From contig CAZXNT010000001.1 of assembly GCA_964642155.1 (NCBI GenBank), positions 65,238 through 129,237 of the forward strand: 64,000 bases of DNA. The letters are read 5' to 3'. Under the pieces are notes generated by a model. The model searched no databases. It had not been told where the DNA came from and saw nothing but the letters and a program-made list of their open reading frames with translations. The translations under genes were made by a program, and so were the position numbers. The first letter of the stretch is position 1; the number at the start of each line of letters is the position of its first letter. This document shows positions 7,479 through 50,082 of the stretch, piece after piece. The DNA comes from an uncultured Candidatus Saccharibacteria bacterium (GTDB lineage: Bacteria > Patescibacteriota > Minisyncoccia > UBA6257 > UBA9933).

Positions 7479-8480
7479 TCAGCTATTAGATAAAGCGATG
7501 ATTCGCTCAACGCTCAAATTCTGCGGCCTCGCATTCGGCTCAACACCGATTAATTTTAATTTTTCAATAATTTCTTCTTTGATTTTTGTCTTATTTATAA
7601 TTTGTGGTTCATTTTTATTACATTGTGCCTGCGATAGCAGATCTAATGTAATATTATTTTTATTTACTTTATCTCCCGCTATCCTATCGGATAGCGTGCT
7701 ATCCGATAGGATAGCTGTATTTTTGCCCGCAATTTCTGACATTAAATTATTTACAATCGTCTTCCTCGGCTGTTTAAAAAGAATTTTGATAAATTTATAA
7801 TATTTCTCATTATTACATTTCAACCGCGATAGCAGTTGAAATGTAACCGGCGTTAATTTAATAATCGCGCTATCCACTTTCGGCGCCGGTTTAAAATCAT
7901 TACGCGACACATAACCGATAATTTTCGGCTCAGCCCAAATCTGAACGCTAGCTGCCAATAAATTAATTTGCGGCGACTTGGCGCAAACGCGCTCCGCCAC
8001 TTCTTTTTGAATTAATAAAACAATTAATTCCGGCTTGCCTGCCCCGCTGTGCCCCGTAGTGAGTTTTGCTCTACTACTGGTGTAAGAAGCTTGCTTTTCT
8101 TCAGAGTACTCCAACCCGCCCAAAATCCTGAATAAATAACCAGTTATGTAATAGGGGATATTACCAACGATTTTATAATTCTTAATTCTGAATTCTGAAT
8201 TCTGAATTAAACGCGGAAGCACTTTCAATGCGTCACCTTCAATAATTTCTATATTTTTATCTCCCTTAAATTTTTCTTTAAAATCTTCGGCTAATTTCTT
8301 ATCTTTCTCAATCGCAATAATTCTACATTCTGAATTCTGCATTCTTAATTCTTTAGTAAGTTCCCCATGCCCGGGCCCAATTTCAATCACAACATCGCCG
8401 TCTTTCAATTCCAACGCTTCAACAATTTTCCGCAATTTCTCCTTATTTTTCAAAAAATACTGTCCAAGATAATTTCCCAT
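7479..8480 (-). CDS. ksgA: 16S rRNA (adenine1518/1519-N6)-dimethyltransferase KsgA/RsmA, carrying several in-frame repeat insertions
   Basis: Conserved motifs GQYFL, VVIEIGPGHGELT and GNIPYYIT. At 333 aa it is longer than typical KsgA. The extra segments correspond exactly to DNA repeats (two 34-bp palindromes, two GAATTCT tracts, one ATCCTATCGGATAGC palindrome). Confidence 0.85.
   Translation of the reverse strand: MGNYLGQYFLKNKEKLRKIVEALELKDGDVVIEIGPGHGELTKELRMQNSECRIIAIEKDKKLAEDFKEKFKGDKNIEIIEGDALKVLPRLIQNSEFRIKNYKIVGNIPYYITGYLFRILGGLEYSEEKQASYTSSRAKLTTGHSGAGKPELIVLLIQKEVAERVCAKSPQINLLAASVQIWAEPKIIGYVSRNDFKPAPKVDSAIIKLTPVTFQLLSRLKCNNEKYYKFIKILFKQPRKTIVNNLMSEIAGKNTAILSDSTLSDRIAGDKVNKNNITLDLLSQAQCNKNEPQIINKTKIKEEIIEKLKLIGVEPNARPQNLSVERIIALSNS
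7813..7846. repeat. 34-bp palindromic repeat TTACATTTCAAC-CGCGATAGCAG-TTGAAATGTAA. Family copies also at 7618-7651, 8515-8548, 9206-9239, 16057-16090 and 44096-44129.
   Basis: Read directly. Conserved core CTGCGATAGCAG flanked by TTACATT/AATGTAA arms. Three copies lie in-frame inside ksgA and the Mur ligase gene, three are intergenic. Confidence 0.85.
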
Positions 8481-8581
8481 TAATATCTATCATATCTATA
8501 AATATTTCATCAAATTACATTTCAACCGCGATAGCAGTTGAAATGTAATTTAAATTTATAATTTATATTATATAATTTGAT

Positions 8582-9193
8582 TTAATTAAATTCAGAAAAA
8601 ATTTTTTCGTCATCTATTTCGCCAACAGTTATAATTCTAATATGATTTTTTAATTTTTTATTAATAATTTCTTTATATAATTCTTTTGATAACGGCCATT
8701 TGCCGATAAAAACGCTTTTTTGAAACGGCCGATATCCCAACCCAAATAATTTGAATCGCAACCATTCTCTTTCTTTTTTTATTTTTTCCGGAATATCAAA
8801 CATTACAATTCTCCATTTTCCATCCCATTCTTTTTTTTTATTATTTTGTTGAATTTTTTTAAAATATTTTAATCCCAATAAAGTCAATTTATATTGTTCA
8901 TCATTTTTTTCAATTAATCCTTTTTGTTGTAAACGATATAAAATAACTTTTGCGTTATTCTTTTTTAAATTTTTAAGAAATTCTTTAATCTCAATATAAT
9001 CGGAAATAAAATCTCTACTATTCCTCATCCCAAAATCAAAAGCTCCGCCCACTCCCATTCTATTACTCATTAATATTCCTTCTCCTGTTTTAATAATTCC
9101 TTGCCCAATTCCAAAAATAACTGCCAAACTTGCCGCTCCTAAACTATATGGTAAATCTTTAAATTGTTCTTTAATTCTTTTTCCTCCTTTCAT
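8582..9193 (-). CDS. PaaX-like winged-helix regulator (Cas2/VapD-fold C-terminal domain)
   Basis: C-terminal motif WDGKWRIVMFDIPEKIKKEREWLRFKLFGLGYRPFQKSVFIGKWP resembles the PaaX signature. N-terminal wHTH ILYRLQQKGLIEK. Bracketed on both sides by copies of the 34-bp palindrome. Confidence 0.4.
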   Translation of the reverse strand: MKGGKRIKEQFKDLPYSLGAASLAVIFGIGQGIIKTGEGILMSNRMGVGGAFDFGMRNSRDFISDYIEIKEFLKNLKKNNAKVILYRLQQKGLIEKNDEQYKLTLLGLKYFKKIQQNNKKKEWDGKWRIVMFDIPEKIKKEREWLRFKLFGLGYRPFQKSVFIGKWPLSKELYKEIINKKLKNHIRIITVGEIDDEKIFSEFN

Positions 9194-9248
9194 CTTTCTA
9201 TTTTATTACATTTCAACCGCGATAGCAATTGAAATGTAACCAAGTAAA

Positions 9249-11120
9249 TCAATACTCAATATAACGCTCTTCGTCGTCCAGAAAATCGCTTAATGTTTCA
9301 AATTTATCGCGATTATTACTTGTAAACTCCACTGTTTCCGGAGCGATTTCATAAAGAAAACGCGAGGGGAAATTATAGAAATTTAAAAATAATTCTTTTT
9401 TGGCGCGTGTCATCGCCACATACATCAAACGGCGCTCTTCTTCAATTTCTTCATCATTATGATATGACATTTGGTGCGGCAACAGTCCTTCATTACAACC
9501 AACGATAAAAACCGCGTCAAATTCAAGCCCTTTGGCCAAATGAATCGTCATTAAATTTATAATATTTTGAGATTTATCTACTAATAGGCGAGATTGAGAA
9601 TCTAAAATTTGAGATTTTTTTATGGCATCACTTGATTGAAAAAGCGAGATTTTTTCAAGAAAATCTTGCAAATTATTGAATTCCGAAGCATAATAAATAA
9701 GTTCATTAATGTTTTCCTCGCGTTCGCGAAAATTATCGTAATTCTTTTTTAATTGGTTTAAATATCCTGTGATTTCCAAAATAAAGCTAATTAACTCAAC
9801 TGGCGGAAGTTTTCCGGTCATTTTCGGAATTTTATCTTGAATTTCCAAAAATGGTTTTTTCAAAAAATTGGTTTTTATTCTCTCAAAACTGACCGTATCG
9901 TTCGGATTAAACGCCCAACGAAGAACCGCCACAATGTCTTTAATTTCTTTGCGTTCATAAAATTTCACGCCGCCGAAAATCTTATAAGCGATGTCGTTTT
10001 CAATAAACGCGCTTTCAATGGCGCGCGACTGCGCGTTAGTGCGATAAAGTATGGCGATAGATTTATTAGAAATTGCCTCCCTTCGGGAGGTCTCCCGCAG
10101 GGAGAGAAATTGGAAATTGGAAATTTTTTCCGCTATCCACTCCGCTTCCCCGTCTTCATCATAATGTTCAATCGCTTTTACCAAATTGCCATCGTCATTT
10201 TCCGTCCAAAGATTTTTATGCTTTTGAAATTTATTTTTGGCTATCAAAGAAGAGGCAGCCTTGATGATGTTGCCGGTTGAACGATAATTTTGTTCTAAAA
10301 AAACGGTTTTTGTTTTCGGCCAATCTTTTTCAAAATTCAAAAAAATTTTAAAATCCGACCCCCTAAATTTATAAATTGACTGTTGGTCGTCTCCGACAAC
10401 GCTTAAATTTTTATGTCCACTAGCCAATAATTTTACAAAAACATATTGCGCCGTATTTGTATCCTGAAATTCGTCAACAAGAATATAACGGAATTTTTTC
10501 TGATATTTTTCAAGAATATCCGGATGATTTTTAAAAATTTTTACCGGCTCCGTGATTAAATCGTCAAAATCAAAAGCATTATTTCTCCGCAGGGTCGTTT
10601 CATATTCCTTAAAAAGAAATTTGACAGTATCATCTTCACTCTCGGGATCGGATAATTCACTTTTAATCCGTGAAAATTCTTTTCGTAAAAATAACGGGTT
10701 AACCTCCTTCTTTTTTTCGTATTCCGAAAAATTAAGATTTTTAACAATTGTTTTTATGAGCCGGAGTGAGTCATCGCCGTCAAAAATGGAAAAATTCGGC
10801 GTTCGGCCGACAAATTTAACTTCGTTTTTTAAAATTCGCGCCCCGAGAGAATGGAAAGTGCCGATGAACGGCTGAACTTTATTTTTTATTCTTAATTCAT
10901 TATTCATTATTCTATTTTTCATTTCTTCCGCCGCCTTATTGGTAAAAGTGATGGCCACAACGCTCTCTGGATCAACTCCGGAAGCCAAAATAGCCGCCAA
11001 ACGGCTGGTTAAAGCCCTGGTTTTCCCGCTTCCGGCTCCGGCAACTATCAAAATCGTCCCCTCTAAGTTTTCCACAGCCTCCTGTTGCTTTTTGTTAAGG
11101 CTTTGATATAATGGGTTCAT
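9249..11120 (-). CDS. uvrD: ATP-dependent DNA helicase UvrD/PcrA family
   Basis: Q-motif and Walker A LNKKQQEAVENLEGTILIVAGAGSGKTRALT. UvrD blocks FTNKAAEEM and YRSTGNII. The likely start is MNPLYQSL at 11120 rather than the ORF-track 11225. Contains an in-frame hairpin element at about 10069-10127. Confidence 0.85.
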   Translation of the reverse strand: MNPLYQSLNKKQQEAVENLEGTILIVAGAGSGKTRALTSRLAAILASGVDPESVVAITFTNKAAEEMKNRIMNNELRIKNKVQPFIGTFHSLGARILKNEVKFVGRTPNFSIFDGDDSLRLIKTIVKNLNFSEYEKKKEVNPLFLRKEFSRIKSELSDPESEDDTVKFLFKEYETTLRRNNAFDFDDLITEPVKIFKNHPDILEKYQKKFRYILVDEFQDTNTAQYVFVKLLASGHKNLSVVGDDQQSIYKFRGSDFKIFLNFEKDWPKTKTVFLEQNYRSTGNIIKAASSLIAKNKFQKHKNLWTENDDGNLVKAIEHYDEDGEAEWIAEKISNFQFLSLRETSRREAISNKSIAILYRTNAQSRAIESAFIENDIAYKIFGGVKFYERKEIKDIVAVLRWAFNPNDTVSFERIKTNFLKKPFLEIQDKIPKMTGKLPPVELISFILEITGYLNQLKKNYDNFREREENINELIYYASEFNNLQDFLEKISLFQSSDAIKKSQILDSQSRLLVDKSQNIINLMTIHLAKGLEFDAVFIVGCNEGLLPHQMSYHNDEEIEEERRLMYVAMTRAKKELFLNFYNFPSRFLYEIAPETVEFTSNNRDKFETLSDFLDDEERYIEY

Positions 11121-11169
11121 TAGTACAATAGTAAGCAAAATTAAATATTTAGCAAATAAAGCGGAAAAA

Positions 11170-11808
11170 ATGAGATTTGACTGCCTCGCTATGCTCTGGT
11201 GGGGACTTTTAATTTTAGCGGTCATTACGGTAAATTTCGCTTCAAATAAGGCTAATTTGAACGTTTCTTTTGTTAAAAACAGTCTCGGTGGTCCGAGCGA
11301 AGAATATCAGCGCCAACATCAAGACGCTCTTTTGGCAGCCACGGCATTAGCGCAAGGAATTCCGGAAGAAACTTCCCAAAACACCTATTCCGACGCTCTT
11401 AATACCAAAAATTCTCCAATTAATCAAAAAATCAATAAAAAATCAAATAAATTACGGATTTCCCCTCCGACTATCGGCTGGAATTGGGGACAATTACACA
11501 CTTTTAACGCCGTTGACATTGCCAACCGTTGTGGCACGCCAATATACGCGGTAAAAGACGGAATTATCACTGAAATAAATGACGATAATAGTTGGAATAA
11601 CGGTTATGGAAATTCCATTACTATGGAGCATTCAAATAATATTGAAACGCTTTATGCGCACCTTGAAAAAGTTCAAACTCAAATCGGCCAATACGTAAAA
11701 GAGAAAGAGCTTATCGGTTATATGGGCAGTACCGGCAATACGGACGGCCCGACTGGCTGCCACCTCCATTTTGAAGTTCACGGCGCGGAAAACCCGTTGG
11801 CAAATTAA
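11170..11808 (+). CDS. M23 family metallopeptidase (lysostaphin-like), secreted
   Basis: N-terminal hydrophobic segment. Catalytic motif LYAHLEKV...GYMGSTGNTDGPTGCHLHFEVH (HxH). Confidence 0.8.
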   Translation: MRFDCLAMLWWGLLILAVITVNFASNKANLNVSFVKNSLGGPSEEYQRQHQDALLAATALAQGIPEETSQNTYSDALNTKNSPINQKINKKSNKLRISPPTIGWNWGQLHTFNAVDIANRCGTPIYAVKDGIITEINDDNSWNNGYGNSITMEHSNNIETLYAHLEKVQTQIGQYVKEKELIGYMGSTGNTDGPTGCHLHFEVHGAENPLAN

Positions 11809-14150: not shown

Positions 14151-15056
14151 TTATCTTCTTCTCCTGCCATGAAACGCTTTATGAACTTCGCGAAGTTCTT
14201 TATTGGTTAAGTGAGTATAAATTTGAGTTGTTGAAATATTGGAGTGGCCGAGCAATTCCTGCACCGAGCGCAAGTCCGCTCCGCCGATTAAAAGGTCAGT
14301 GGCAAATTGATGACGCAACTGATGAGGAGATATTCTTTCAAAAATTCCGGCTTTACGACTGTAAAAATCAACTAATCTTTGCGCCGTTCTCGGTAAAATT
14401 CTACCGATAATTTTAGAAGAATTTTTATTCAAACTGATAAATAACGCTTCTTCAATATCTCCACGCTTATCCAAATAATTTTTAAGCGCTTTTTTGGCGC
14501 GTTCGGAAAGAAAAACTACTCGTATTTTGCCGCCTTTGCCACGAACCGTGATTTCACCGCGGTCAATGTCTATGCGCCTATCCAGCGAACAAAGTTCGGA
14601 AATGCGCAAACCGGTTGAAAACAACATTTCCAAAATAGCCTTATCCCGCAAAGATTTTAAATCATCTCCCTGCGGCGCGTTAAGCAACCGTTCCATGTCT
14701 TTATACTCAACTATCTTAATCTGGCGTTCGGGAATTTTCGGCAATTCAATTTTATCCGGCGACAAAACATTATAATCATTTTTAATCAAATATTTTAAAA
14801 AATTCCTTAAAGCGATAATATAATAAGATTGCGTCGTTTTTTTAAGATATTCTCCCTTTTCATTCTTCATTCGTGCCAAATGCAACCGAAAATTTTTTAT
14901 CTTATCAACATCAATGTTTTTTTCGCTTTTAATTCCGCTAAATTTAAAAAAAACTTTAAGATAACGCTCGTAATTTTCCCGCGTTTTTAAAGAACGATTT
15001 TTTTCTATTTCAAGATAATCAAGATAATTTTGAAAAAGATTTTTAATGTCCGCCAT
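14151..15056 (-). CDS. xerD: tyrosine site-specific recombinase XerC/XerD
   Basis: Catalytic box ISPHQLRHQFATDLLIGGADLRSVQELLGHSNISTTQIYTHL with R..H..R..Y. Confidence 0.85.
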   Translation of the reverse strand: MADIKNLFQNYLDYLEIEKNRSLKTRENYERYLKVFFKFSGIKSEKNIDVDKIKNFRLHLARMKNEKGEYLKKTTQSYYIIALRNFLKYLIKNDYNVLSPDKIELPKIPERQIKIVEYKDMERLLNAPQGDDLKSLRDKAILEMLFSTGLRISELCSLDRRIDIDRGEITVRGKGGKIRVVFLSERAKKALKNYLDKRGDIEEALFISLNKNSSKIIGRILPRTAQRLVDFYSRKAGIFERISPHQLRHQFATDLLIGGADLRSVQELLGHSNISTTQIYTHLTNKELREVHKAFHGRRRR

Positions 15057-16046: not shown

Positions 16047-16109
16047 TAATTTAAAATTACATTACGACTGCTATCGCAGGTGTAATGTAATTATTAAAAT
16101 TTTTAATTA

Positions 16110-18311: not shown

Positions 18312-18353
18312 TTTCTGCCTCCTTATTTAAAAATTAAAGAACGTTTATTTTGT

Positions 18354-19561
18354 CTAAGATTTAACACAATAAACAGGATCGTCGCAATTCACTCTATAAA
18401 TAATTCCATCTTCATCATTTTCGAATAAGAGATTATTTTTATCTTCTAAAATAGCGCCTAAAATATAACTTTGACCGTCATCGCTGATACTATATGAATA
18501 AAATCGAATTGTTTTATCTTTATCTTTAATTAAAATGTCTTTTAAAAAATGCAATGAATTAGCTATGACGAGTGATTTCCCGTCAAATTTCAAATAGTCG
18601 CTTTTTGAAGCACTTGGATAATATTTTTTTGCAAGGTAATAATCGTTTAAATAAATCTGAATTTTGGAAAAATCAGACATCACCTGTTGTGCGGGATGCG
18701 CTTTTTGTTTAATTTTATTAAATCCAATACCAACTACTGACGCAAACAACACAAACAATATTATTAATAACGCTATAATCGCTCCAAATGTCGCGCAAAA
18801 AACAAAAAATCTCTTTTTAGTTTTAATCGGTTGATTAACTAACTCCGGCTTAAGCGAAATTAATGAGCGATATAAAATAAAGGAGTAAGCCACGGCAAAT
18901 GGCAATAATAAGAATGTGTATAAAATCTCATCTACTAATACTAATAAAGTATTATCTATAATATTTTTGTTAAAAATATCAAACGGGGAAATAATCACAA
19001 AACTAATACCAGTTATTATTAATGAACAAATTAATATTCTCCAAAAAATCTTCCACCAACAACCAGCCACATAATCTTTGCTTCTTAGAAGCGCTTGTAG
19101 ACCATATAAATTTTGGTCAATTAAAATATAGGCGGCAAAAATGAACCAGACGCCAAAAATGAAAATTGGAATAATCCCCATTACTAATCCGCCTAAACCA
19201 ATAAAAAAGCCAAGAACAACAAGCCATAAATAAGATTTGAATTTTGAAAGAGCTGATTTATAGGCGGCAATTACACCTAAGGATTCATCACAAAAAGCGC
19301 AAATTAAAGCCAACGGAGTAAATAAAAACAAAATAATAAACCAGCTAATCAGAATTATAAAACCTATTATTACTAAAAATATGTTGCTTTCAAAAACATA
19401 GGTGATTTGCAATAGTACCGAAAAAACAAATGGTAGTAAGCTAATAAAAATTAGTGTCTTAAAGCGATTCTTATATATTAACCAAGAAGACCCAAAAAGT
19501 TGACGGATAGAAATTAAAGATTTATTTGTGTTATTTAATTTTTGAGCTTTGAATTCGTCCA
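18354..19561 (-). CDS. polytopic membrane protein with C-terminal extracytoplasmic domain
   Basis: Multiple TM helices. The likely start is MDEFKAQKL at about 19561. The ORF-track extension to 19631 runs into the duplicated gap 3' fragment. Confidence 0.45.
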
Positions 19562-19583
19562 TTTTTAATTTAATTATATTGTT

Positions 19584-19667
19584 TCCGCCGCTTTCAAAAC
19601 GTGCTTTTTCAGCATTGCCACATATCCCCATTCGTTATCGTACCAGGAAAGAATTTTCACCAAATTC
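19584..19667. repeat. 84-bp direct repeat, identical to 20182-20265 (duplicated 3' end of gap)
   Basis: Identical strings tccgccgctttcaaaacgtgctttttcagcattgccacatatccccattcgttatcgtaccaggaaagaattttcaccaaatt at both positions. The DUF4258/DUF2283 pair lies between them. Confidence 0.9.
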
Positions 19668-19676
19668 TTTTAAAAA

Positions 19677-19922
19677 TTAATTAAATGTCATTACTCTCCT
19701 GTCTCCTGTAAAAACATTGTTAAAAGAAAAATTTTCAAATGTGGCGGTATTTAATTCTTTCCCAAATTTTTCTTTAGCCCCTATTATCTCAAGATAAAGC
19801 GGCTTTCCGCTTTTATCTAAATCCAAAAACATCTCCTTCGCGACTTCAAGAGTTCTAAAAACCTTGCCCTTTTTAAATGTGATATTTACGGCGTCAACTG
19901 CCGCATCATAGGTTATTTTCAT
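19677..19922 (-). CDS. DUF2283-family putative antitoxin
   Basis: MKITYDAAVDAVNITF...YLEIIGA matches the DUF2283 signature (M.I.YD.E.DALYI...GIEI). Overlaps the upstream gene by 4 bp. Confidence 0.6.
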   Translation of the reverse strand: MKITYDAAVDAVNITFKKGKVFRTLEVAKEMFLDLDKSGKPLYLEIIGAKEKFGKELNTATFENFSFNNVFTGDRRVMTFN

Positions 19923-20155
19923 ATTTTTTTATTGAATTTTTCATCCCAATATTGAGTTATTATGACAATTATATCGTTTTCTTTAATAAAAACAACTTTT
20001 AAATATAATTTCCCGAATTTTTTATAAGCTATTTTTCTGTTTGATAAACTTGGAGAAATTATATCAGGATTTTTAATGGTTTGAATAATTTTTTGTTTTA
20101 ATATGCTCCTTTGCTTTAATTTTAATAAAGAATGTGTGCTAAAAATAATTTTCAT
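19919..20155 (-). CDS. DUF4258-family putative toxin (BECR-fold RNase-like)
   Basis: Pattern H..L..R.I....I..T..NPD.I ... YLKVVF....IIVIITQYW typical of DUF4258. Paired with DUF2283. Confidence 0.55.
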   Translation of the reverse strand: MKIIFSTHSLLKLKQRSILKQKIIQTIKNPDIISPSLSNRKIAYKKFGKLYLKVVFIKENDIIVIITQYWDEKFNKKI

Positions 20156-20171
20156 ATTTTAAAATTTAACT

Positions 20172-21176
20172 TTACAAATTCTCCGCCGCTTTCAAAACGT
20201 GCTTTTTCAGCATTGCCACATATCCCCATTCGTTATCGTACCAGGAAAGAATTTTCACCAAATTGCCGTCGATTACTTTGGTAAATTTTAAATCAACGAT
20301 CGCTCCGTACGATTCAGAAATAATATCCGAAGAAACAATCTGGTCTTCAACGGTTTTTAAAATTCCCTGCCATTTTTGAGATCCTGTGGCTTTTTTCAAA
20401 ATATCATTAATTTCTTCAACCGAAGTTTTTCTTTTGGAAATAAAAGTGATGTCCGCGATGGAACCGGTAATCATAGGCACGCGCAAAGCAATGCCGTCAA
20501 ATTTTCCTTCCAAGTCTTTAATGATGCGATTGGTAGCAATGGCCGCGCCGGTAGTTGAAGGAATAATATTTTGCGAAGCGGCCCGGCCGCGCCGAAAATC
20601 GTTGCCCTTCACCGGACTGTCAACGGTTGTTTGAGTATTAGTCATTGCGTGAATAGTGTTTAAAACTGCTTTTTCAATTCCCGGATTTTCATTTAAAATC
20701 GCCATAACCGAAGCAATGCCGTTAGTGGTGCAGGAAGCGTTGGAAGAAATTTTAACGGATTTCAATTCATCGTCATTTATGCCGATTAAAATCGTCTTGC
20801 CCAAATCGCCGTCTGCGTCTTTTGCCGGCGCGGTCAAAACAACTCTTTTGGCTCCGGCGTCCAAATGCGCCTTGGCTTTTTCATAAGATTCAAAAACTCC
20901 CGTTGATTCAACGACAATATCCACGCCCAAATCTTTCCACGGTAATTTTGTCGGGTCTTTTTCCTGTAAAAATTTTATATTGTCAATCGGAGTTTCAAAA
21001 CGCCCGTAAACCGAATCGTACTTAAATAAATAACGCAGATTTTCAACGTCGCCCAAATCATTTATCGCGACAATTTCAATCCGCTGGCTAACGGATGGGT
21101 CGCTTAATATCTGCCTAAGGAATAATCGCCCAATCCTTCCAAAACCGTTTATCGCTATTTTAATTTTTTTATCCAT
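20172..21176 (-). CDS. gap: type I glyceraldehyde-3-phosphate dehydrogenase
   Basis: KIAINGFGRIGRLFLRQ and SNASCTTNGIASV active-site motifs. Confidence 0.9.
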   Translation of the reverse strand: MDKKIKIAINGFGRIGRLFLRQILSDPSVSQRIEIVAINDLGDVENLRYLFKYDSVYGRFETPIDNIKFLQEKDPTKLPWKDLGVDIVVESTGVFESYEKAKAHLDAGAKRVVLTAPAKDADGDLGKTILIGINDDELKSVKISSNASCTTNGIASVMAILNENPGIEKAVLNTIHAMTNTQTTVDSPVKGNDFRRGRAASQNIIPSTTGAAIATNRIIKDLEGKFDGIALRVPMITGSIADITFISKRKTSVEEINDILKKATGSQKWQGILKTVEDQIVSSDIISESYGAIVDLKFTKVIDGNLVKILSWYDNEWGYVAMLKKHVLKAAENL

Positions 21177-21766: not shown

Positions 21767-22240
21767 TCAAAAATTTACAAAATGAAATGCCACTATACCG
21801 AATGCCACGGCAACATTTAAAGATTCTTTCCTACCTTTCATCGGAATTTCCAGAATTTTATCGGCTTTTTTCAGGATTGACAACGGCAAGCCCTTAACTT
21901 CATTGCCCAACACCAAAGCAATCTTACGAGACTTAGTCTCATAAGATTTAATTTTATAATACGGAATTGATTTTTTACTTTGCTCAACAGCAAAAATTTT
22001 ATAACCGTCCTTTTTAAGTCGGTCAATTAAACGGGCTGTGGATTTAAAATGTTCCCACCCTACGTATTTCTCCGCGCCAAGTGAAACCTTTACCAATTGT
22101 TCGCGCGATCTGCCGAATTCATCAACCGGTTTCGGCGTAATGCCGCATAAATATATTTTTTTAATTCCAACGGCATCGGCGGTGCGAAATATGGAACCGA
22201 CGTTATAAAGAGAACGGATATTGTGGAGAATAAGAATCAT
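21767..22240 (-). CDS. SpoU/TrmH-family RNA 2'-O-methyltransferase
   Basis: SPOUT motifs NVGSIFRTADAVG, LVLGNEVKGL, IPMKG. Confidence 0.75.
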   Translation of the reverse strand: MILILHNIRSLYNVGSIFRTADAVGIKKIYLCGITPKPVDEFGRSREQLVKVSLGAEKYVGWEHFKSTARLIDRLKKDGYKIFAVEQSKKSIPYYKIKSYETKSRKIALVLGNEVKGLPLSILKKADKILEIPMKGRKESLNVAVAFGIVAFHFVNF

Positions 22241-25200
22241 CTTAATGATATTGGTGAAGTAATAATAAAATACAAATCTTTTTCGCCATTATAAGGAACA
22301 TAACTGTCACTATCCCAATAAACAAAATGGCCATTAATCCATGCGTCATTCTCGGAATACCCTAATTTCCAATTTTGTCCGGAACCTCTAAATACAAAAT
22401 TAAAATAATACCATTTCGAAGCGGCGAGAGTGATACGCGGAAAACTGAAAGTATTGATTCCGGTTGTTAAATCAGACGTTGTAAATGAATGATTTACCAA
22501 AGATGAACAATTAACATAATTAACGTCGCATTCATAAAAATAAAAATTGTGATTGTCCTGCTGGCCAATATCTTTCATATAAATACTTAAAGAATTAATT
22601 CCGCCGCTTAAATTATTCCCCAAAAATTGCCGATAATAAGAATACTGTGCTTGTGTCGTATTTATATAATCTATTTGTTGAGCGAATATAAATCTTTCAT
22701 TTAAAGAATACGGTATATTTATTTCTTTGCTAAAACTGGCAAGCGATTCATTTCCTGATTGGTCAATAGCCACAATAGAAAATTTATAATTGCGTCCAAC
22801 TTCATTAATTGCAATTGTTGTTGAGGTCGCGGAAGTGATTATTTCCGGTAAAACCAAAGTTGAGCTAGAAACCAAAGAACTGATATCAGTAATTCTATAA
22901 GTCGGGGCCGATGAAGAAGCGTTAAAATATCTCGGCTTATCCCAATTTAAAGAAAATGCTAATGTACTGGTTGAATAATTCGCTTCAAAATTTTGCGCCA
23001 CTGATTGAGAAATACTCGCAGGAAGTTCAATCGGCGATTGTGGCGAGCCGGTTTTTATTAAAAAATATAAATCTTTTATTCCCGCGTCAATGTACGCGCT
23101 ATTATTATCATATTTTGTCGCTTTCCCGTAGATATAAGAAGAGCTGTTGTTTGAGCCGTAAAAATAAGAATAATTTTGATAAATTTCAAATTTGAGTTTG
23201 TAGTATTTTGACGGGTCGAAAGTGAATGATTGCTGAATGGGAATCGTATAATCTTTATCAATATTAAATTCAAAATTTAAATTTGGACAATCGCTTCCGT
23301 AAATACTGCCATTGGCATAGGTGGCGCCGGGATTATCGCGAGTGCAGGTATTTGAAGAAATTTTTATAAGATTGCTATAATCTGATTCATTAGATTGCCA
23401 AAAAGTCGCGTTAATATAATAAGTTTCTATCCAATATCCGGAGGAAGGCAGTTTTGCATGAAAAGTTATGCTTTGGGGCGATCCCAATAAACCATTGCCA
23501 AGATCTTGATCAAAATGGCCGTTGCCATCGCCTTGATCAAAAACGAATTTATCAAGCTGTTGAGCAATAATTAAAGTTGAATTTGGAATTGAGATTTCTT
23601 TTTGACTTGATGTTGAATTAAAATTTTCTTTGTCAAAAGCTTGAATTGAAAATAAATAAGTTTTACCGAAATTATTTTCATTAAGTGAAATTATGGCCGC
23701 TGTTGAAGTCGTATTAATTTCCGCAAAAGTCGAACTACTATTACTAATATCGCTAATTTTGTAAATTATCGTTGAAGTGGCGCCGAAATAATCCTGCGAT
23801 ACATTCCAATTAAAATTTAATTCCATCGTGCTGGAACTGTATTGAATTGAAAAATTTTGCGGCGTTATCGGAGCGTTGCGCGGCTCAGGAAAATTTTGTG
23901 AATTTTGCGGCTCCGCTGAATTTCTTAAAATAAAATCATCCGCACTATCAGTATCATAACCATTACCGGAAAATCTATGCTCGCCGGAAACCATTAAATC
24001 AACAGTTGAGGTTGAAAACGCTTTTCGCTCCAATGATTGACCGTCTATAAAATTAACCGGATTATAATTTGCTTGGTCAATAATCGCATCATTCTCAAAC
24101 AATAAAATGCTTATGGTTTCACTGCCGCTGGTGGAAAGAGAATATGAACGATTTAATTTATCGGCGATCGCATATGTGCTACTGCCATAATTGCTTAAGC
24201 CAACCAGAAAAAAACTTTTTGCGGCAATTATCTGGCTAGATGAAAAACTGGAAAGTGAATTTGTGCTCGTGGCTGACCCTGTTTGTCTTTTTAAAGAATA
24301 ATTGCCGAGTTCAATTGAAGAATCTGTCGGATTATATAATTCCACAAAATCAAAATTATTTCCTGTTTTATCGGGATAAATTTCGCTGATAACAATATGA
24401 TTGACGCCTGCCGGTGCCAAAGAATTAATTAAAATAGTGGTTGAAGTGGCGGTTGACGAAGCGTTTTGATTGTCAAAAACAATTAAATCGACTTGGTAAT
24501 TGCCGGCTTGAGAATAAATGTGAGTAGTAGTAGCGGTTGTTGCCGAAGAAGTCGCATTATCGCCAAAATTCCATTGATAGGAAATAATTTGACCGTCAAT
24601 GTCAGTTGAAGAAGCGGCGTTAAATAAAATTAAATCGCCAACTTGAGGATTTAAAGAAGTATAAATAAAAGAGGCGACAGGACTTTGATTGTTTTGCAAA
24701 CAAGTTCTGAATTGTGTTTTCGGACTCGGACAAGTCTGAATTTCAAAATCTTGCGCATTATTATCTATATCAATAAAATCTCCACTTTGAAATTTTCTTT
24801 GAATACTTTGACCGTCCGCGGAATTTGTCGGAAAAACCGAGTTTTCAATAAAAATATTTTCCGCTTCGCCCCACGCAACGCTGTCAATAATCTGTCCCGT
24901 GTCATTCGCGCCGTAACGAATGGCAATGCCATTATTATTGCTAATTGTCTGCGTAGTGGTTGAATTCGAAACAACAGACATGTCACTACAATCGCTGTTT
25001 GCCCATAAATAATAACTATTGGCCGGAATAGAATCGCCACTCGTCCATGATTTAATTAAAGTGTCGCTTGCTCCAGTTTGAGTTCTTTTAACTAAACGGT
25101 AATTTTGAAGATTAATTACAGCGCTGTTTGGATTATAAATTTCTATAAAATCATCGTGCGTGCTTGACGCTGAAGCCAATTGAATTTCGGTAATTAAAAT

Positions 25201-26754
25201 TTTCAACGGCTCCGCACTTGTTTGCATATTATTCTGCGTATTACTGTTGCTTCCTCCACTGCTGCCACCGCTACTATTTACACTCGCGTTTCCGCTTCCG
25301 CTTCCGCCGGTATATCTAAAAACAATGGTGTTTGTTTGACCGCTTGTTTGATTACTTTGCTCATTGACGTTAATTACAATTTCTTCTTGTTGTTTCTCCT
25401 GATTTTTTATTTCTTCTTTTTTAATTCCTTCTTCATATAACAAATCACTGCCGATCGGCAGTAAACTGTTATAGTCTAAAATTTCATTTTTGATTTCTGT
25501 TGAATTATTGGTTTCTATTATTGAAGAAGTGGCTGTTTCATCAGAATTCGCATTATCAATAGCATTATCCAATAAAGAAATTTGTTGCGGCTGTTGCGAT
25601 TGATTAATCCCCAATAAATTGCCGATTGTTGATTTGACTTGGCTAAAAAGATTTTTTGCAGTTTCAATCGTTTTTGTTAAAAATGATTTATCTTCAATTT
25701 TTGTAAAATTCGGATCATTTTTCGCTTTTTCAACTTCTTGAAAGAAAAGATTAATAACTCCGGCGCCATATTGAACAGATTTAGTGGAAAGACGAGACCA
25801 GTAATCATTCACCACTCTATCTTCATCTTCTATTTTTAAAACAATATTAGATTTTGTTTCTGATATAAAACTATTGTGATAATTTTTATAAACAAATAAA
25901 TAATATAAATTATTATCTTCGTCGTATTTTGCCGCATAATAATAATCTCCATCTTTTTTCAACAATCCTTCTGTATTTGGCTGCGGCAACTCATATCCAC
26001 TCTGTATTCCAATCGTATCTTTGCTATAAAAATTATTATTTGAATATTTCGCCAACCCGTCAAAATAAGAATTTAAATCGGAAAAAATAAATGGGGGCTT
26101 ATTTGACAATCTTTTATTTAAATCAGCGTCGGGGTTAGAAAGAATAAATTTAGCGGTGTAATTTTCATAAGGACTATCTTCGGGATGTGGATCGTTCCTT
26201 GTGTGATCTGGAACAGATGCATCCTCAACTAAATGTAAAATGTGCCCCAAGATAAGCATTGCTTTTTCTTTCTCGCCTTGCGCATAAAATTTAACAGCTC
26301 TTTCCCAAATAAAATCAGTTTCCGTTGTTAAAGCGCTGATTTTTTTCTGCTGAATTGCCGTTAAAACTGAAGCAATTGTTGTTGGAACTTTATAAGTTAA
26401 GCTGTTTTGATTATAGCTATCTTGCGCCCAATCTTTAGATTTTTGCCAAGTGCCTAGATTAATCATGGGATCTATTGCCGGATCGTACGTTAATCCTCTA
26501 TTTTTTACTGGATCATAAAAATGATTCATCCAGCGCGGAATATCATCTTCTTGACGAACTCCATCTAAAAGATATGGAACTAATTCTTCATTGATTTTAT
26601 TATCTGAAAATTTTTGATTATAAAATTTAACAGCCTCATTGGTTAAATAAGCATGAGTTTCAATGCCATAAGCAAAAACATTATTAATACTAATAACAAA
26701 AAATCCTAATATAAAAATTGGGATTAAAAATTTTATATACTTTCTATTTTCCAT
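22237..26754 (-). CDS. giant secreted multidomain protein: Zn-dependent PLC/P1-nuclease-like N-domain, two lamin-tail domains, PKD domain, FN3-like repeats
   Basis: Signal peptide. HILHLVEDASVPDHTRND and YGIETHAYLTNEAV match PLC/S1-P1 zinc-site signatures. Lamin-tail-domain segments around FIEIYNPNS and FVELYNPTD. PKD signature WNFGDN...THIY. Confidence 0.6.
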   Translation of the reverse strand: MENRKYIKFLIPIFILGFFVISINNVFAYGIETHAYLTNEAVKFYNQKFSDNKINEELVPYLLDGVRQEDDIPRWMNHFYDPVKNRGLTYDPAIDPMINLGTWQKSKDWAQDSYNQNSLTYKVPTTIASVLTAIQQKKISALTTETDFIWERAVKFYAQGEKEKAMLILGHILHLVEDASVPDHTRNDPHPEDSPYENYTAKFILSNPDADLNKRLSNKPPFIFSDLNSYFDGLAKYSNNNFYSKDTIGIQSGYELPQPNTEGLLKKDGDYYYAAKYDEDNNLYYLFVYKNYHNSFISETKSNIVLKIEDEDRVVNDYWSRLSTKSVQYGAGVINLFFQEVEKAKNDPNFTKIEDKSFLTKTIETAKNLFSQVKSTIGNLLGINQSQQPQQISLLDNAIDNANSDETATSSIIETNNSTEIKNEILDYNSLLPIGSDLLYEEGIKKEEIKNQEKQQEEIVINVNEQSNQTSGQTNTIVFRYTGGSGSGNASVNSSGGSSGGSNSNTQNNMQTSAEPLKILITEIQLASASSTHDDFIEIYNPNSAVINLQNYRLVKRTQTGASDTLIKSWTSGDSIPANSYYLWANSDCSDMSVVSNSTTTQTISNNNGIAIRYGANDTGQIIDSVAWGEAENIFIENSVFPTNSADGQSIQRKFQSGDFIDIDNNAQDFEIQTCPSPKTQFRTCLQNNQSPVASFIYTSLNPQVGDLILFNAASSTDIDGQIISYQWNFGDNATSSATTATTTHIYSQAGNYQVDLIVFDNQNASSTATSTTILINSLAPAGVNHIVISEIYPDKTGNNFDFVELYNPTDSSIELGNYSLKRQTGSATSTNSLSSFSSSQIIAAKSFFLVGLSNYGSSTYAIADKLNRSYSLSTSGSETISILLFENDAIIDQANYNPVNFIDGQSLERKAFSTSTVDLMVSGEHRFSGNGYDTDSADDFILRNSAEPQNSQNFPEPRNAPITPQNFSIQYSSSTMELNFNWNVSQDYFGATSTIIYKISDISNSSSTFAEINTTSTAAIISLNENNFGKTYLFSIQAFDKENFNSTSSQKEISIPNSTLIIAQQLDKFVFDQGDGNGHFDQDLGNGLLGSPQSITFHAKLPSSGYWIETYYINATFWQSNESDYSNLIKISSNTCTRDNPGATYANGSIYGSDCPNLNFEFNIDKDYTIPIQQSFTFDPSKYYKLKFEIYQNYSYFYGSNNSSSYIYGKATKYDNNSAYIDAGIKDLYFLIKTGSPQSPIELPASISQSVAQNFEANYSTSTLAFSLNWDKPRYFNASSSAPTYRITDISSLVSSSTLVLPEIITSATSTTIAINEVGRNYKFSIVAIDQSGNESLASFSKEINIPYSLNERFIFAQQIDYINTTQAQYSYYRQFLGNNLSGGINSLSIYMKDIGQQDNHNFYFYECDVNYVNCSSLVNHSFTTSDLTTGINTFSFPRITLAASKWYYFNFVFRGSGQNWKLGYSENDAWINGHFVYWDSDSYVPYNGEKDLYFIITSPISLR

Positions 26755-27266
26755 ATTTTAGAATTTTTATTTAATTTTATTTCTATTAATAAATCAATTT
26801 CTCCATTTGAATTGTAAAGTTTAAATAAAGCCCCGTCATCATCTTTAAATGTTAATTTAATTAACGATAATTTAGATATCATCTCTTCTAATCTATTATT
26901 TGTTTTTAATTTCTCTAATCCTTCCTTCAATTTTGGGTCAACGCTCCCGTCGCTTCTTAACACAAAATATTTACTCGCCAACTCAATATCTTCTTTCTTT
27001 AACGCCTCAATAAACATTTGCAAAGTTTCTTCCGGAGTTTTACCGCCATAAATATCTTCTTCCATCGCTTTATTATAATTTTTTTCCCAAGTAAGATATT
27101 TTTCATAATTTTTCTGCGTTTCGCGTTGATATTTTGCCTGCGGACTTAAATATTTCCCCCATAACAAAAAACCTCCAATCGTAAAGATAATAATTCCTAA
27201 AAAACCTATTACAAATTTTCGGAAATTCAACTTATTTTTAAATTCATTATTAATTTGATTATTCAT
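26733..27266 (-). CDS. small membrane-anchored protein, paralog of 27833..28366
   Basis: N-terminal TM. Shared block YGGKTPEETLQMFIEAL...ELASKYF and C-terminal IWKIESI. Confidence 0.5.
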   Translation of the reverse strand: MNNQINNEFKNKLNFRKFVIGFLGIIIFTIGGFLLWGKYLSPQAKYQRETQKNYEKYLTWEKNYNKAMEEDIYGGKTPEETLQMFIEALKKEDIELASKYFVLRSDGSVDPKLKEGLEKLKTNNRLEEMISKLSLIKLTFKDDDGALFKLYNSNGEIDLLIEIKLNKNSKIWKIESI

Positions 27267-27280
27267 ATGATTTATTAAAT

Positions 27281-27817
27281 TTAATTATTTATTATATTAC
27301 TTTTATTAAAAGATGATTTTCTTTGTCTCATTCTTAATGTCGCAATAATAAAAACAAGAATTAGTTCAAAAAATGATGATGTTATTATATAAAAATTTAA
27401 AATGTTTTCTAAAATTTTAATTTCATAATCAGAATAAGAAAAAATTAAGATGTGAATAAATGGGAATATAAAAAGGGTTGCTATGATAATTAATATTGGT
27501 AAAACAAAAAAATTAAATTTATTAGATAAAATTTTTGACATCCATTTAATAATTAAAGCTGGCAATCCTATAAATAATATTAACATTATAATATATTGAG
27601 GGCTGAAATTTAAATTAAAAATATTTTTAAAGAAATTTTTGAGTATATTTAATCGTGTTTCATTTTCTAAATTTGGAAATATTATAATAAGTAATAAATT
27701 ATATAAAAATATAATAAATATAAAAAATAACAAATTAGTTAAAATAATTTTAAATTTCCAAAACTTGCTCTTCGGCTTATTATTCTTATTTAAAGAAATT
27801 AGTATTTTTTTGAACAT
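27281..27817 (-). CDS. polytopic membrane protein sharing an N-terminal motif with both flanking genes
   Basis: N-terminal KPKSKFWKFKIIL compares with KPKGKFWKFTLIF in the upstream paralog. Four or five TM helices. Confidence 0.45.
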   Translation of the reverse strand: MFKKILISLNKNNKPKSKFWKFKIILTNLLFFIFIIFLYNLLLIIIFPNLENETRLNILKNFFKNIFNLNFSPQYIIMLILFIGLPALIIKWMSKILSNKFNFFVLPILIIIATLFIFPFIHILIFSYSDYEIKILENILNFYIITSSFFELILVFIIATLRMRQRKSSFNKSNIINN

Positions 27818-27832
27818 AATTTTAATTACTAA

Positions 27833-28366
27833 TTATATTTCTATTATTTTCCAAATATTATTAGGATAAAGACCTATTCTAATATAAATTGGCTCGTCAA
27901 TAAAAAATTCTTTTCTACCAGGAATATCATCTGATGAAAAATATCCATTTGTAGATTTTTTAAGTAAACTAAGATATTTATCTATAAATTCTTTTGTCAC
28001 TTTATTTAATTTTTCCAATTCTTTTTCCTGATATTTCTCTATAAAATATTTACTCGCCAATTCGTAATTTCCTGTTTCAACGGCGCTTATGTACATTTGC
28101 AAAGTTTCCTGCGGAATTCTACCGCCATAAGTGTCCGCCATGGCTTTTTGATAATCTTCTTGTTTAATTCTTTCCAATCTTCCAGCTAATTCTTCAACCG
28201 CTTTTTCTCCCTGCCATTGCCTAAAAAAATACCAACACCAAGAACTGGCGATATACAAAACAAAAACACCGGCGATTATCGTGAAGAATATCAATGTGAA
28301 CTTCCAAAATTTGCCTTTCGGCTTATTAATTTCGTTTATTTGATTGTTTTGATTTTGATTTTCCAT
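27833..28366 (-). CDS. small membrane-anchored protein, paralog of 26733..27266
   Basis: Same architecture. Its start codon abuts the terminal inverted repeat of MITE copy 1. Confidence 0.5.
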   Translation of the reverse strand: MENQNQNNQINEINKPKGKFWKFTLIFFTIIAGVFVLYIASSWCWYFFRQWQGEKAVEELAGRLERIKQEDYQKAMADTYGGRIPQETLQMYISAVETGNYELASKYFIEKYQEKELEKLNKVTKEFIDKYLSLLKKSTNGYFSSDDIPGRKEFFIDEPIYIRIGLYPNNIWKIIEI

Positions 28367-28513
28367 CCCTCACCCTTCAAAGATTTTCCAGTACATAAAG
28401 CTTTTTATGTACTGGATTATATTGAAGTTTAATTTTATTTTATATCTCATTCATTTTACTTATCATTCCCCTTTACCACTTTCTTTATTTCTTATCTTTG
28501 AAGGGTGAGGGAT
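28365..28513. mobile_element. MITE-like element copy 1 (20-bp terminal inverted repeats ATCCCTCACCCTTCAAAGAT / ATCTTTGAAGGGTGAGGGAT)
   Basis: Termini are identical to the copies at about 50081-50223 and 55438-55584. The interior is AT-rich with a hairpin. Confidence 0.6.
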
Positions 28514-28649
28514 TTTCAAAATAAAAAGGACGTATTCCAAAAAACACGCCCCCTCACTCAGGCATAATTAAATTATAAATCGCCACATTTTTCCGTCAAC
28601 CACTCTCTCTGTGGATAACTTATTTATCTAATACATTAAACTCTAAATA

Positions 28650-43404: not shown

Positions 43405-44826
43405 TTATATTATTACATTGTGGGCTTTTTTATTTTCCAAAATTTCCTCCACGATTTTTTTTTCGTCCCACGGAATTTTTTTATTGCCCGCAACGCACAT
43501 TGACGACTCCCCTCCCTTCCCCGTTAAAATAACAACATCTCCTTTTTGCGCCAAAAACAGCGCCTTTTTAATCGCTTCTCTCCTATCTATAATTTCATAA
43601 ATTTTGGAAATTGGAAATTGTCTGGCTTCGCCAGATCTCGCGAAGCGAGAGAAATTGGAAATTCCAGATTTTATTTCCGATAAAATCTGGCTGGGTTTTT
43701 CGTCATATGGGTCTTCATTCGTCAAAATAACTTCATCGCAATATCGCGTTGCTATTTCGCCCATTTTCGGCCTTTTCCATTTATCCCGTCCTCCGCCCTG
43801 CGCCCCCAATAAACATATCAACTTTGAATTCTGAATTCTGAATTCTGAATTCTGAATTGTTTGATATACTGCTTCCAAACTCACCGGTTCATGGGCGTAA
43901 TCAACAATCACGGTAAAATCACTTACCTTGATAATCTCCATTCTGCCTGCCGGCGATTTTGCCTGCGCCAACGCTTCTTTTATTTTTTCAATCGGGATAT
44001 TTAGCGACAAAGTAACCGCAATCGCCGCCACGGCATTATAAACATTAAATTCCCCAACTAATAGTATTCCAATAATTAATGGTATTTCAATTTTATTACA
44101 TTGCATCTGCGATAGCAGATGTAATGTAACTTCGAATTTTGTTTTATCTGAATATAATTTAATATTTTCTACTTCTAAAATTTTATTTACTTTTGACTTT
44201 TGATTTGAACTTTTGACTTTTATTCCGTATCCGTATTTATTTTTAATTTCCGGTTTTAAAAAATATTCAACGTTTTCATCGTCTAAGTTATAAATCCCAA
44301 CACCATTTTTCTTTCGTGCCACTCTTTCAAATAATTTTATTTTTGCGTTCCGATAATTTTCAAAACCGCCGTGCCGTTCAATATGTTCAGGCGATAAATT
44401 TGTAAAAACCGCGATATCATAATCAATAAAACGATGTCTGTATTGCAAAATCCCCTCTGAAGAAGTTTCTACCACCGCGTATTCGCATTTTTCCGCAACC
44501 ATTTGCCTCAGCAATTTTTGCAGCTGAAACCTGCCGAGCATTGTCTGCTTTGATTCGTTTTTCCATTCCCGCTCGCCTATCCGAAAATCCACCGTGGTTG
44601 CCATTCCGACTTTATGGCCGCTGAAATTCAAAATTTGAGCGATTAAATTGCAAGTGGTGGTTTTTCCTTTGGTTCCGGTAACACCGATGACTTTCATTTT
44701 GTGAGACGGAAAACCATAAATCAAGGCTGAAAAAAATGCCAGAGAAAAATGATAAATCGGCTGGCCGAGCCGATATAAAAATTTCGGAATAATATGTTTT
44801 TCAAAAAATCTTAAAATTTTCTCCAT
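43405..44826 (-). CDS. murE: Mur ligase family protein (MurE-like), with in-frame repeat insertions
   Basis: VIGVTGTKGKTTT P-loop, NLSPEHIERHGGFENYRNAK and a C-terminal GGGRDKWKRP Mur-ligase motif. Contains a 34-bp palindrome, a (GAATTCT)4 tract and a double-hairpin element. Confidence 0.7.
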   Translation of the reverse strand: MEKILRFFEKHIIPKFLYRLGQPIYHFSLAFFSALIYGFPSHKMKVIGVTGTKGKTTTCNLIAQILNFSGHKVGMATTVDFRIGEREWKNESKQTMLGRFQLQKLLRQMVAEKCEYAVVETSSEGILQYRHRFIDYDIAVFTNLSPEHIERHGGFENYRNAKIKLFERVARKKNGVGIYNLDDENVEYFLKPEIKNKYGYGIKVKSSNQKSKVNKILEVENIKLYSDKTKFEVTLHLLSQMQCNKIEIPLIIGILLVGEFNVYNAVAAIAVTLSLNIPIEKIKEALAQAKSPAGRMEIIKVSDFTVIVDYAHEPVSLEAVYQTIQNSEFRIQNSKLICLLGAQGGGRDKWKRPKMGEIATRYCDEVILTNEDPYDEKPSQILSEIKSGISNFSRFARSGEARQFPISKIYEIIDRREAIKKALFLAQKGDVVILTGKGGESSMCVAGNKKIPWDEKKIVEEILENKKAHNVII

Positions 44827-49812: not shown

Positions 49813-50082
49813 TTATTTTTTCAAGCCGAGTTTTCGCACTAAGCTTGTATAACTTTTATTATCACTGCTTTCCAAATAAGAAAGGAATTTCTTTCTTTTG
49901 CCAACCATTTTTAAGAGCCCGCGGCGGGAATGATTGTCTTTAGCATTCTTCTTAAGATGGTCAGCTAATTCATTAATCTGCTTGGTTAAAAGCGCGATTT
50001 GAATTTCAACCGACCCGGTGTCGGTTTCATGAAGCCCGTACTCTTTCGCGATATTTTGTTTTTGCCTGACGGTTAAAGCCAT
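49813..50082 (-). CDS. rpsO: 30S ribosomal protein S15
   Basis: [16 protein letters not shown]...[20 protein letters not shown]. Confidence 0.9.

Follow-up and report, generated by a model that had tools for sequence, protein, structure and literature searches.

A probable old gap 3'-end scar, homogenised in recent time, around a predicted toxin-antitoxin pair in a Candidatus Saccharibacteria genome

When two small genes stand between two identical copies of the end of a core gene, were the genes and the repeat brought there together? The case arises in a stretch of 64,000 nucleotides from an uncultured Candidatus Saccharibacteria bacterium (contig CAZXNT010000001.1, positions 65,238 to 129,237; the whole stretch is hereafter called the window). 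There, the gene gap, encoding the glycolytic enzyme glyceraldehyde-3-phosphate dehydrogenase (GAPDH), is followed by two overlapping small genes of the DUF4258 and DUF2283 families, enclosed by a direct repeat of the gap 3' end. An original prediction, made from the sequence of the window, considered them a type II toxin-antitoxin pair and took the flanking duplication as the mark of a recent cassette insertion. The answer that we favour, and hold to be reasonably probable, is that the pair lies in an old 3'-end displacement scar at gap, which was recently homogenised and has been reused as a homology arm in block swaps.

The gap, toxin, antitoxin and membrane-protein genes of this locus all lie on the minus strand, and the order in the window is SpoU, RpiB, gap, DUF4258, DUF2283, the second repeat copy, the membrane-protein gene, a reprolysin-like gene and rpe. 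The gap gene (20172..21176) encodes a type I GAPDH of 334 amino acids (aa) ending in KAAENL, with the Pfam domains Gp_dh_N and Gp_dh_C; against TIGR01534 it scored 361.5 bits, slightly below the cut-off of 367.2. Locus reading, a repeat search and a pattern search allowing up to 3 mismatches all gave an exact direct repeat of 83 nucleotides (nt), at 19584-19666 and 20182-20264. The duplication had been described as 84 bp long; it is real, but base 84 differs between the copies (on the plus strand, C at 19667 and G at 20265), and the interval from one copy to the other (19667-20181) is 515 nt rather than the 514 first given. None of 100 dinucleotide-preserving shuffles yielded any match, and the pattern search, at the same tolerance, found no third copy within the 64-kb window.

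Copy A (20182..20264, minus strand) spans, in the live gap gene, the final 27 codons and 2 further nt, from N305 to the second base of E332. After the gap stop, a 16-nt spacer seen by locus reading (20156..20171) leads to the putative toxin gene of the DUF4258 family (19919..20155, 78 aa), which is followed by the putative antitoxin gene of the DUF2283 family (19677..19922, 81 aa). The overlap of the two small genes was confirmed, and consists of the 4-nt ATGA at 19919-19922. Between the antitoxin stop and the second repeat copy lies a 10-nt spacer, TTTTTAAAAG on the coding strand (19667..19676), which, from comparison of the same position in the relatives L081 and L106, may be the remnant of a longer copy. 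Copy B (19584..19666) is a displaced, non-coding copy of the gap 3' end, and in relatives this position is likewise occupied by a piece of the gap tail. The tails of the two copies differ, as copy A ends in AAENL and the stop, whereas copy B runs into the alternative tail A ACA ATA TAA (19574..19583) and would give AAETI and a stop; from there, 11 nt lead to the ATG at 19562. An AATTTG microhomology is shared by the start of the repeat and the gap tail. A promoter and terminator scan in and around the repeat gave nothing convincing, with none predicted in the 16-nt spacer, and Rfam returned tRNAs only; a regulatory-RNA or promoter role of copy B, finding no support in these searches, was dropped.

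Age of the pair and of the repeat

Synteny was drawn from metagenome contigs; species-representative genomes contained no close relative, their best gap match being a Patescibacteria protein of 57% identity. Exact-protein look-ups of the window toxin, gap and membrane protein gave no match. Through toxin homologues of 81-85% identity we reached over 25 contigs from groundwater metagenomes, in which the gap protein is 95% identical to that of the window and the pair is found within the same SpoU-RpiB-gap...reprolysin-rpe neighbourhood. In these relatives the order is SpoU, RpiB, gap, genes of 76, 156 and 579 aa, DUF4258, DUF2283, a 212-aa gene, a trypsin-like gene, the reprolysin-like gene and rpe.

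We compared synonymous divergence (dS) and its ratio to nonsynonymous divergence (dN/dS) between the window and L081 by the Nei-Gojobori method. Results showed a dS of 0.48 for the toxin, 0.44 for the antitoxin and 0.44 for gap, with dN/dS of 0.16, 0.08 and 0.06, respectively. As the dS values are about equal, the pair has co-diverged with gap, and both of its genes are under purifying selection. Being syntenic in the relatives and co-diverged with gap, the pair therefore predates the split of these lineages. The claim that the flanking duplication marks a recent cassette insertion is contradicted by these results, and also by L106, a lineage in which the entire unit of gap, toxin, antitoxin and copy aligns colinearly with that of the window although DNA identity is only about 75% (74.7% over the unit).

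Empty sites were found in two relatives. In L104, whose gap is ~91% identical, rpe begins 5 nt after the gap stop, and in L103 127 nt separate gap from rpe; compared with this state, the pair with its duplicated gap end is an insertion. The expectation that gap would stand directly before the next gene in relatives thus held for gap followed by rpe but not for gap followed by the membrane-protein gene, since no empty site for the window's own arrangement was found. We also observed an element of ~125 nt with terminal inverted repeats (CCCCCACACC ... GGTGTGGGGG) between gap and rpe in L103 (L103:3868-3994) and L106 (L106:2578-2702), which is not present in the short interval of L104. On the other side of gap, a 119-aa gene resembling S-adenosylmethionine (AdoMet) decarboxylase stands between RpiB and gap in L092, L105 and L106, and is missing from the window, L081, L103 and L104. 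As this gene is present in some lineages only, the region upstream of gap is also variable.

A recent de novo insertion of the pair could have occurred by a Campbell-type single crossover with a small circle that bore 83 nt of gap. Homology-facilitated illegitimate recombination, a process documented in transformable bacteria (PMC5361080, PMC3240628), would be another route. A recent insertion would explain why the copies are identical at 83/83 positions and why their tails differ, as expected if one of them arrived with incoming DNA, and the AATTTG microhomology is also in its favour. We nevertheless consider such an insertion unlikely, because the sister lineage has the pair at the same place with a dS equal to that of gap, and already carries a gap fragment 3' of the antitoxin, so that the insertion predates the split.

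The identity of the copies is another matter. At a dS of ~0.44, a non-coding copy of 83 nt drifting independently would be expected to show about 15-20 differences, and we observed 0; therefore, the two copies of the window were made identical recently. We infer that what is recent here is the identity of the copies, reached by gene conversion or by a recombination placing a fresh gap end beside the antitoxin, and not the arrival of the pair.

Gap-end fragments and the variable slot

A gap-tail fragment, of 25-98 nt, lies 3' of the antitoxin in every sampled relative with a gap-linked pair. In all close relatives (the L081 type), TTTTGAAAGCGGCGGAAAATTTGTAAAA directly follows the antitoxin stop and is 28/28 identical to the tail of their own gap. 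L106, which came from a metagenome scan with gap and whose gap protein is 83% identical, reads gap (ending in AAEIL), a DUF4258-like gene, a DUF2283-like gene, a 98-nt gap-end copy and rpe; the copy is 97/98 identical to its own gap and ends in AAENL. In L098, the antitoxin is followed by a degenerate fragment (~26 nt), a perfect one of 25 nt, and then by a 195-aa gene and a DUF4325 gene; next come a 67-nt gap fragment ending in ETVI, a tail similar to the one after copy B, and genes of 82 and 68 aa, the latter weakly YoeB-like. L115, with a gap 68% identical to that of the window, has a diverged gap-end fragment of ~67 nt, DNEWGYVATLVRHVSNVAALL and a stop, upstream of a homologue of the window membrane protein. 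All fragments extend to the gap stop and start at different codons (83, 98, 67 and 28 nt).

Some further observations were made on these contigs. L098:3333-5322, on the 3' side of the antitoxin, is an array of small modules, each headed by a gap 3'-end fragment, and a 13-mer of the tail of copy B, AAACAATATAATT, recurs just upstream of the 195-aa gene of L098. In L115, a more distant relative, the region 11025-11210 holds an inverted piece of the gap segment coding for NEWGY, directly after gap, as well as the diverged gap-end fragment. The string TTTTGAAAGCGGCGGARA can serve in searches for gap-tail fragments in this clade. That copy B shares its left boundary (AAAG) with the L106 copy, minus 11 nt, is compatible with the sequences and was set aside as too weak to claim.

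As the contig is metagenome-derived and an exact repeat with unique flanks resembles a wrongly traversed loop, we asked whether the duplication could be an assembly artefact, arising from a strain mixture or from a misresolved graph loop in a metagenome-assembled genome. We regard this as very improbable. L106 is an independent assembly of a different species and has the same layout of gap, pair and copy with its own sequence, shorter ones are seen in over 25 contigs that were derived from several samples by several assemblers, and the two copies of the window carry different, meaningful tails. In addition, a repeat length of 83 nt matches no usual k-mer size among assembler defaults.

The fragments also bear on how the pair may have come to gap. 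Direct repeats from the 3' end of the target gene are present at both ends of the element, as in att-bounded insertions, and together with a new gene end supplied by the insert they are the classic outcome of site-specific integration. The cassette could then be a non-autonomous element, the repeats being attL and attR derived from a circle with a gap-like attP and the integrase being encoded elsewhere. The existence of empty sites agrees with this, as does L098, where gap fragments punctuate two-gene modules in a manner resembling tandem accretion at one site. Against it, the fragments do not share a left boundary, the two small genes have diverged in step with gap, and no integrase is present in the 515-nt insert or in the sampled related arrays. 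The sole tyrosine recombinase among 20 scanned window open reading frames (ORFs) is Xer-like (14151-15056, minus strand; Phage_integrase and SAM-like N-terminal domains), adjoins split transketolase genes 4.5 kb from the cassette, and is 94% identical and syntenic in L104, an empty-site genome; it is probably a housekeeping enzyme. More distant homologues of the pair (L179, L181, L184, L186, L189-L192) lie at unrelated sites without duplications of coding ends, and no toxin relatives were found on viral contigs. Taken together, we judge a site-specific cassette to be improbable.

Those distant homologues also led us to reject a gap-end type of duplication as a general trait of this toxin-antitoxin family; a 44-nt repeat present in L191 and L192 is a terminator-like hairpin. 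Other kinds of element were likewise tried and rejected. Xer/dif-type integration at the 28-nt fragment was discarded given its poor dyad symmetry and the conservation of the Xer-like gene in the empty-site genome. An integron gene cassette would not fit borders that have no inverted repeat, and the scan of 20 window ORFs gave no IntI. A transposon or insertion sequence was excluded as the insert consists of two small genes only, has no terminal inverted repeats, and is flanked by a repeat of 83 nt versus ~2-15 bp.

The interval between gap and rpe is a variable slot. Between the antitoxin and the reprolysin-like gene we found three alternative contents, each headed by a gap fragment: copy B and the membrane-protein gene in the window, the 28-nt fragment followed in the L081 type by the 212-aa gene and the trypsin-like one, and, in L098, three modules with a fragment at the head of each. 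The right junction of all three is common and falls at window position 18351, where similarity to the relatives resumes. Each of these blocks looks as if a gap gene had once stood immediately before it, and as if a crossover in gap-end homology had then captured it. As each slot content is headed by a gap fragment, recombination placing a fresh gap end beside the antitoxin fits as the source of the copy identity in the window.

The block that fills the slot in the window has misled annotation. The database protein P0001 is a form of 425 aa whose start was placed at 19631; this position falls within copy B, and the reading frame is +1 with respect to gap. Two homologues, P0002 and the gene at L115:11269-12132 (36% identity), have their first residue opposite residue 32 of this ORF; therefore, the true start is the ATG at 19562, giving a membrane protein of 402 aa (18354..19562, minus strand) and leaving a spurious N-terminal extension of 23 codons, MGICGNAEKARFESGGNNIIKLK (19563..19631, minus strand). 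The earlier suggestion that the displaced copy falsely lengthens the downstream membrane-protein ORF was thus supported, one gene start is corrected, and the same artefactual reading frame occurs at the gap tail of L106. Relatives of the membrane protein are scarce, with one at 34% identity in addition to that of L115.

Comparison of L106 with L103 provided direct sequence evidence of a homologous crossover inside a displaced copy. The RpiB genes of the two are ~94% identical and gap drops to ~80%; identity then reaches 98-99% over a stretch that starts halfway along the copy and takes in the spacer and most of rpe. The displaced copy of L106 is a chimera, whose left 55 nt agree with its own gap and whose right part, tail and downstream DNA agree with L103, with the switch lying within GAATGGGG. 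As the gap of L106 is an outlier against the other lineages, import of a block into L106 by double crossover is favoured. Such a block would have comprised the AdoMet-decarboxylase-like gene, gap, the toxin, the antitoxin and the left part of the copy, and the right crossover would have joined the displaced copy of the donor to the gap end of the recipient. Mosaicism also extends into gap itself, as identity among the window, L081, L104, L103 and L106 ranges from 80 to 98% per 84-nt block, and between the window and L104 it swings from 80% to 98% in adjacent blocks. This suggests frequent homologous exchange inside a core gene.

The predicted toxin-antitoxin pair and a model for the scar

Both family assignments were upheld when the HMM (hidden Markov model) check was run. 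The toxin ORF scored 26.8 bits against DUF4258 (PF14076; Pfam gathering cut-off 25) over profile positions 1-71 of 71, and the antitoxin ORF 38.2 bits against DUF2283 (PF10049; cut-off 23). No model of NCBIfam, PADLOC or PHROGs matches either small gene, and PDB sequence searches gave nothing useful for the pair. In an alignment with 36 homologues, toxin residues H8, R16, L52, V54 and T67 are invariant and K12, Q15, R40, K45, Y51, Q68 and W70 near-invariant; H8, R16, R40, K45, Y51 and T67 are candidate catalytic residues. The AlphaFold model of the toxin, built on the 36-sequence alignment, reached a predicted local distance difference test (pLDDT) score of 92, and its best PDB matches by Foldseek were RelE, RelE2, RelE1, HigB1 and ParE (probability 0.96-0.99, TM score ~0.5-0.6, E-value ~0.02). 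A RelE/ParE-type (BECR) fold is thus predicted for the toxin. In the antitoxin model, residues 1-55 form a beta domain predicted with confidence and the C-terminal tail is of low confidence; the fold search gave nothing significant, the top match being a CdiI chain with an E-value of 0.4.

The two families also occur together elsewhere, as DUF4258 was paired with DUF2283 in 13/13 look-up results, including sites away from gap, for instance downstream of a thiolase gene or beside rpsO. In agreement with the predicted fold, a review places DUF4258 in the RelE/ParE (BECR) superfamily, listing its target as "unknown" with no experimental reference (PMC11980606), and a preprint assigns DUF4258 to a colicin-like branch, with an overlap with the polymorphic-toxin domain Ntox49 (bioRxiv 10.64898/2026.08.28.747851). 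The Pfam families, the RelE/ParE-type toxin model and the recurrent pairing all agree with the original prediction of a type II toxin-antitoxin module, and membership of the pair in this class is accordingly predicted at the levels of sequence, fold and context.

We propose the following model. The DUF4258/DUF2283 pair would have entered the last ~100 bases of gap before the split from the nearest sampled relatives. The incoming DNA would have given gap a replacement end, with the original end displaced 3' of the antitoxin as a non-coding copy, and from then on the pair would have been inherited with gap under purifying selection. It is probably transcribed by read-through from gap across the 16-nt spacer, with translation probably coupled through the ATGA overlap. 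A probable role for the toxin is that of a small RelE-type ribonuclease, and the antitoxin probably neutralises it by direct binding. Because of its homology, the displaced copy would recombine with the live gap end, which within a genome would keep the copies identical, while between genomes it would act as a crossover point at which flanking blocks are exchanged by ordinary homologous recombination. The latest event in the window most likely brought in, or re-copied, the gap end with the membrane-protein gene beside the antitoxin. The direct repeats would permit the pair to loop out, and post-segregational killing by the toxin would be expected to oppose this.

Several points weigh against this model. 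As regards the pair, the DUF4258 score barely exceeds its cut-off, the Foldseek E-values are weak, though the matches are mutually consistent, DUF2283 has no recognised DNA-binding domain, and the review gives no experiment for the DUF4258 toxin-antitoxin family (PMC11980606). As regards the scar, its left boundaries vary by lineage, so that a single ancient duplication needs later internal deletions; several independent duplication events are the alternative. The recombinase scan, which found no cassette-linked recombinase, covered 20 window ORFs, and the sequence analysed spans 64 kb of the genome. Only one mosaic of the L106/L103 kind was seen, and whether it reflects a gain by L106 or a replacement on the L103 side depends on modest differences of identity. 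Gene conversion over a tract of 83 nt is an assumption, the repeat structure is read from the assembly, and a near-identical strain of the window organism was not found, so that the homogenising event is deduced from the copies themselves.

We also considered a bolder idea, which is possible though rather doubtful: the displaced gap end may be a selected, portable homology arm, a recombinase-free means by which a selfish pair builds and holds a variable slot. If so, a pair standing between the live gap end and its copy could be moved by homologous recombination into any relative with gap, whatever lies downstream, and could also capture blocks lying 3' of gap in other genomes. The addictive pair would then block repeat-driven loop-out, and the slot would be kept beside an essential gene in small-genome groundwater bacteria.

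Whichever way the slot is maintained, the locus has a bearing on the interpretation of flanking duplications. Recent insertion does not follow from a perfect flanking repeat, as here the repeat appears to be young and the cassette old. The locus also offers a testable example of genome plasticity in bacteria of the candidate phyla radiation (Patescibacteria type), whose genomes are tiny and poor in classical mobile elements: a variable slot lies beside a core glycolysis gene, recombination appears to use the duplicated gene end, and a toxin-antitoxin pair is placed where it could prevent loss. In addition, this compact and conserved DUF4258/DUF2283 pair offers candidate catalytic residues for a toxin family that is experimentally uncharacterised.

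Some other features of the window were noted. Perfect or near-perfect hairpins of ~31-35 nt (TTACATT...GCGATAGC...AATGTAA) are found in intergenic regions at 7621-7651, 7816-7846, 8518-8548, 9209-9239, 16060-16090 and 44099-44129, and the same family occurs just upstream of the toxin gene in relatives (L081:5918-5955). The family is not in Rfam and could be a terminator-like element or one of the repetitive extragenic palindromic (REP) type. These hairpins also flank a gene at 8582-9193 (minus strand) for a 203-aa protein with a PaaX central/Cas2-like domain, near which no CRISPR array was seen. Three elements of ~160 nt, at 28363-28524, 50079-50234 and 55436-55595, have conserved inverted ends of 22 nt (CCATCCCTCACCCTTCAAAGAT / ATCTTTGAAGGGTGAGGGAT) around variable AT-rich interiors, and may resemble miniature inverted-repeat transposable elements or form a conserved intergenic bracket. 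Finally, three tandem paralogues of ~177 aa (26733-28366, minus strand), with 93-nt segments 74% identical, lie directly downstream, on the coding strand, of a predicted surface protein of 1505 aa (22237-26754).

Comparison with known systems

Some integrative elements target the 3' end of central-metabolism genes. The elements e14 and phage 21 integrate at the 3' end of icd and restore the target gene, and ICESt1-type elements, as well as the integrase-less cis-mobilizable elements (CIMEs), target the 3' end of fda, with att-bounded derivatives known. The gap locus resembles them in having direct repeats of the end of a central-metabolism gene and an insert that provides the new gene end. Unlike these systems, no integrase was found here, no common core is evident in the repeats, and the pair is inherited vertically with gap.

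As a toxin-antitoxin module, the pair resembles type II RelE/ParE (BECR) modules, including the DUF4258 group (PMC11980606), in its small toxin of RelE-like predicted fold, the adjoining small partner gene, the overlapping reading frames and the pairing kept across genomes. It differs from the DUF4258 group of that review in gene order, which is toxin-antitoxin here and antitoxin-toxin there, and from RelE/ParE-type modules in its partner, which is DUF2283 and not an antitoxin of the MqsA or helix-turn-helix (HTH) type.

The slot itself may be compared with the minimal mobile elements of Neisseria, in which variable cassettes lie between conserved flanks and are exchanged by transformation and homologous recombination (PMC3082526, PMC1538595). 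In both, alternative contents stand between conserved flanks (here, the antitoxin or gap at one end, and at the other the reprolysin-like gene or rpe), a dedicated recombinase is lacking, and identity is mosaic around the slot. Two differences should be considered. At gap, one homology arm derives from the upstream gene by duplication and moves together with the cassette, and whereas the Neisseria elements are exchanged by transformation, the slot described here was recognised by sequence comparison.

Among known processes, the nearest analogue is the 3'-end (C-terminal) displacement of rhs, cdiA and type VI secretion system (T6SS) effector-immunity loci (Kirchberger et al. 2017, PMC5361080; Jackson et al. 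2009 as cited there). In those loci, a new end arrives with a small module and the old end stays as an orphan fragment; both homologous recombination and homology-facilitated illegitimate recombination have been proposed to account for this (PMC5361080). The constant gene at our locus is instead a housekeeping glycolytic enzyme and not a toxin-delivery protein, only its last 2-3 codons are replaced, and the toxin has an ORF of its own, not fused to gap and in another frame. The displaced fragments here are also short (25-98 nt) and non-coding, unlike the displaced 3' regions of rhs, cdiA and T6SS loci, which encode the variable toxin domain of the constant protein. Despite these differences, the overall arrangement is alike, as a constant upstream gene gains a new 3' end together with a toxin-immunity-type module while the old end is left as an orphan on the 3' side, and repeated events produce strings of fragments, each heading a different module, as in L098.

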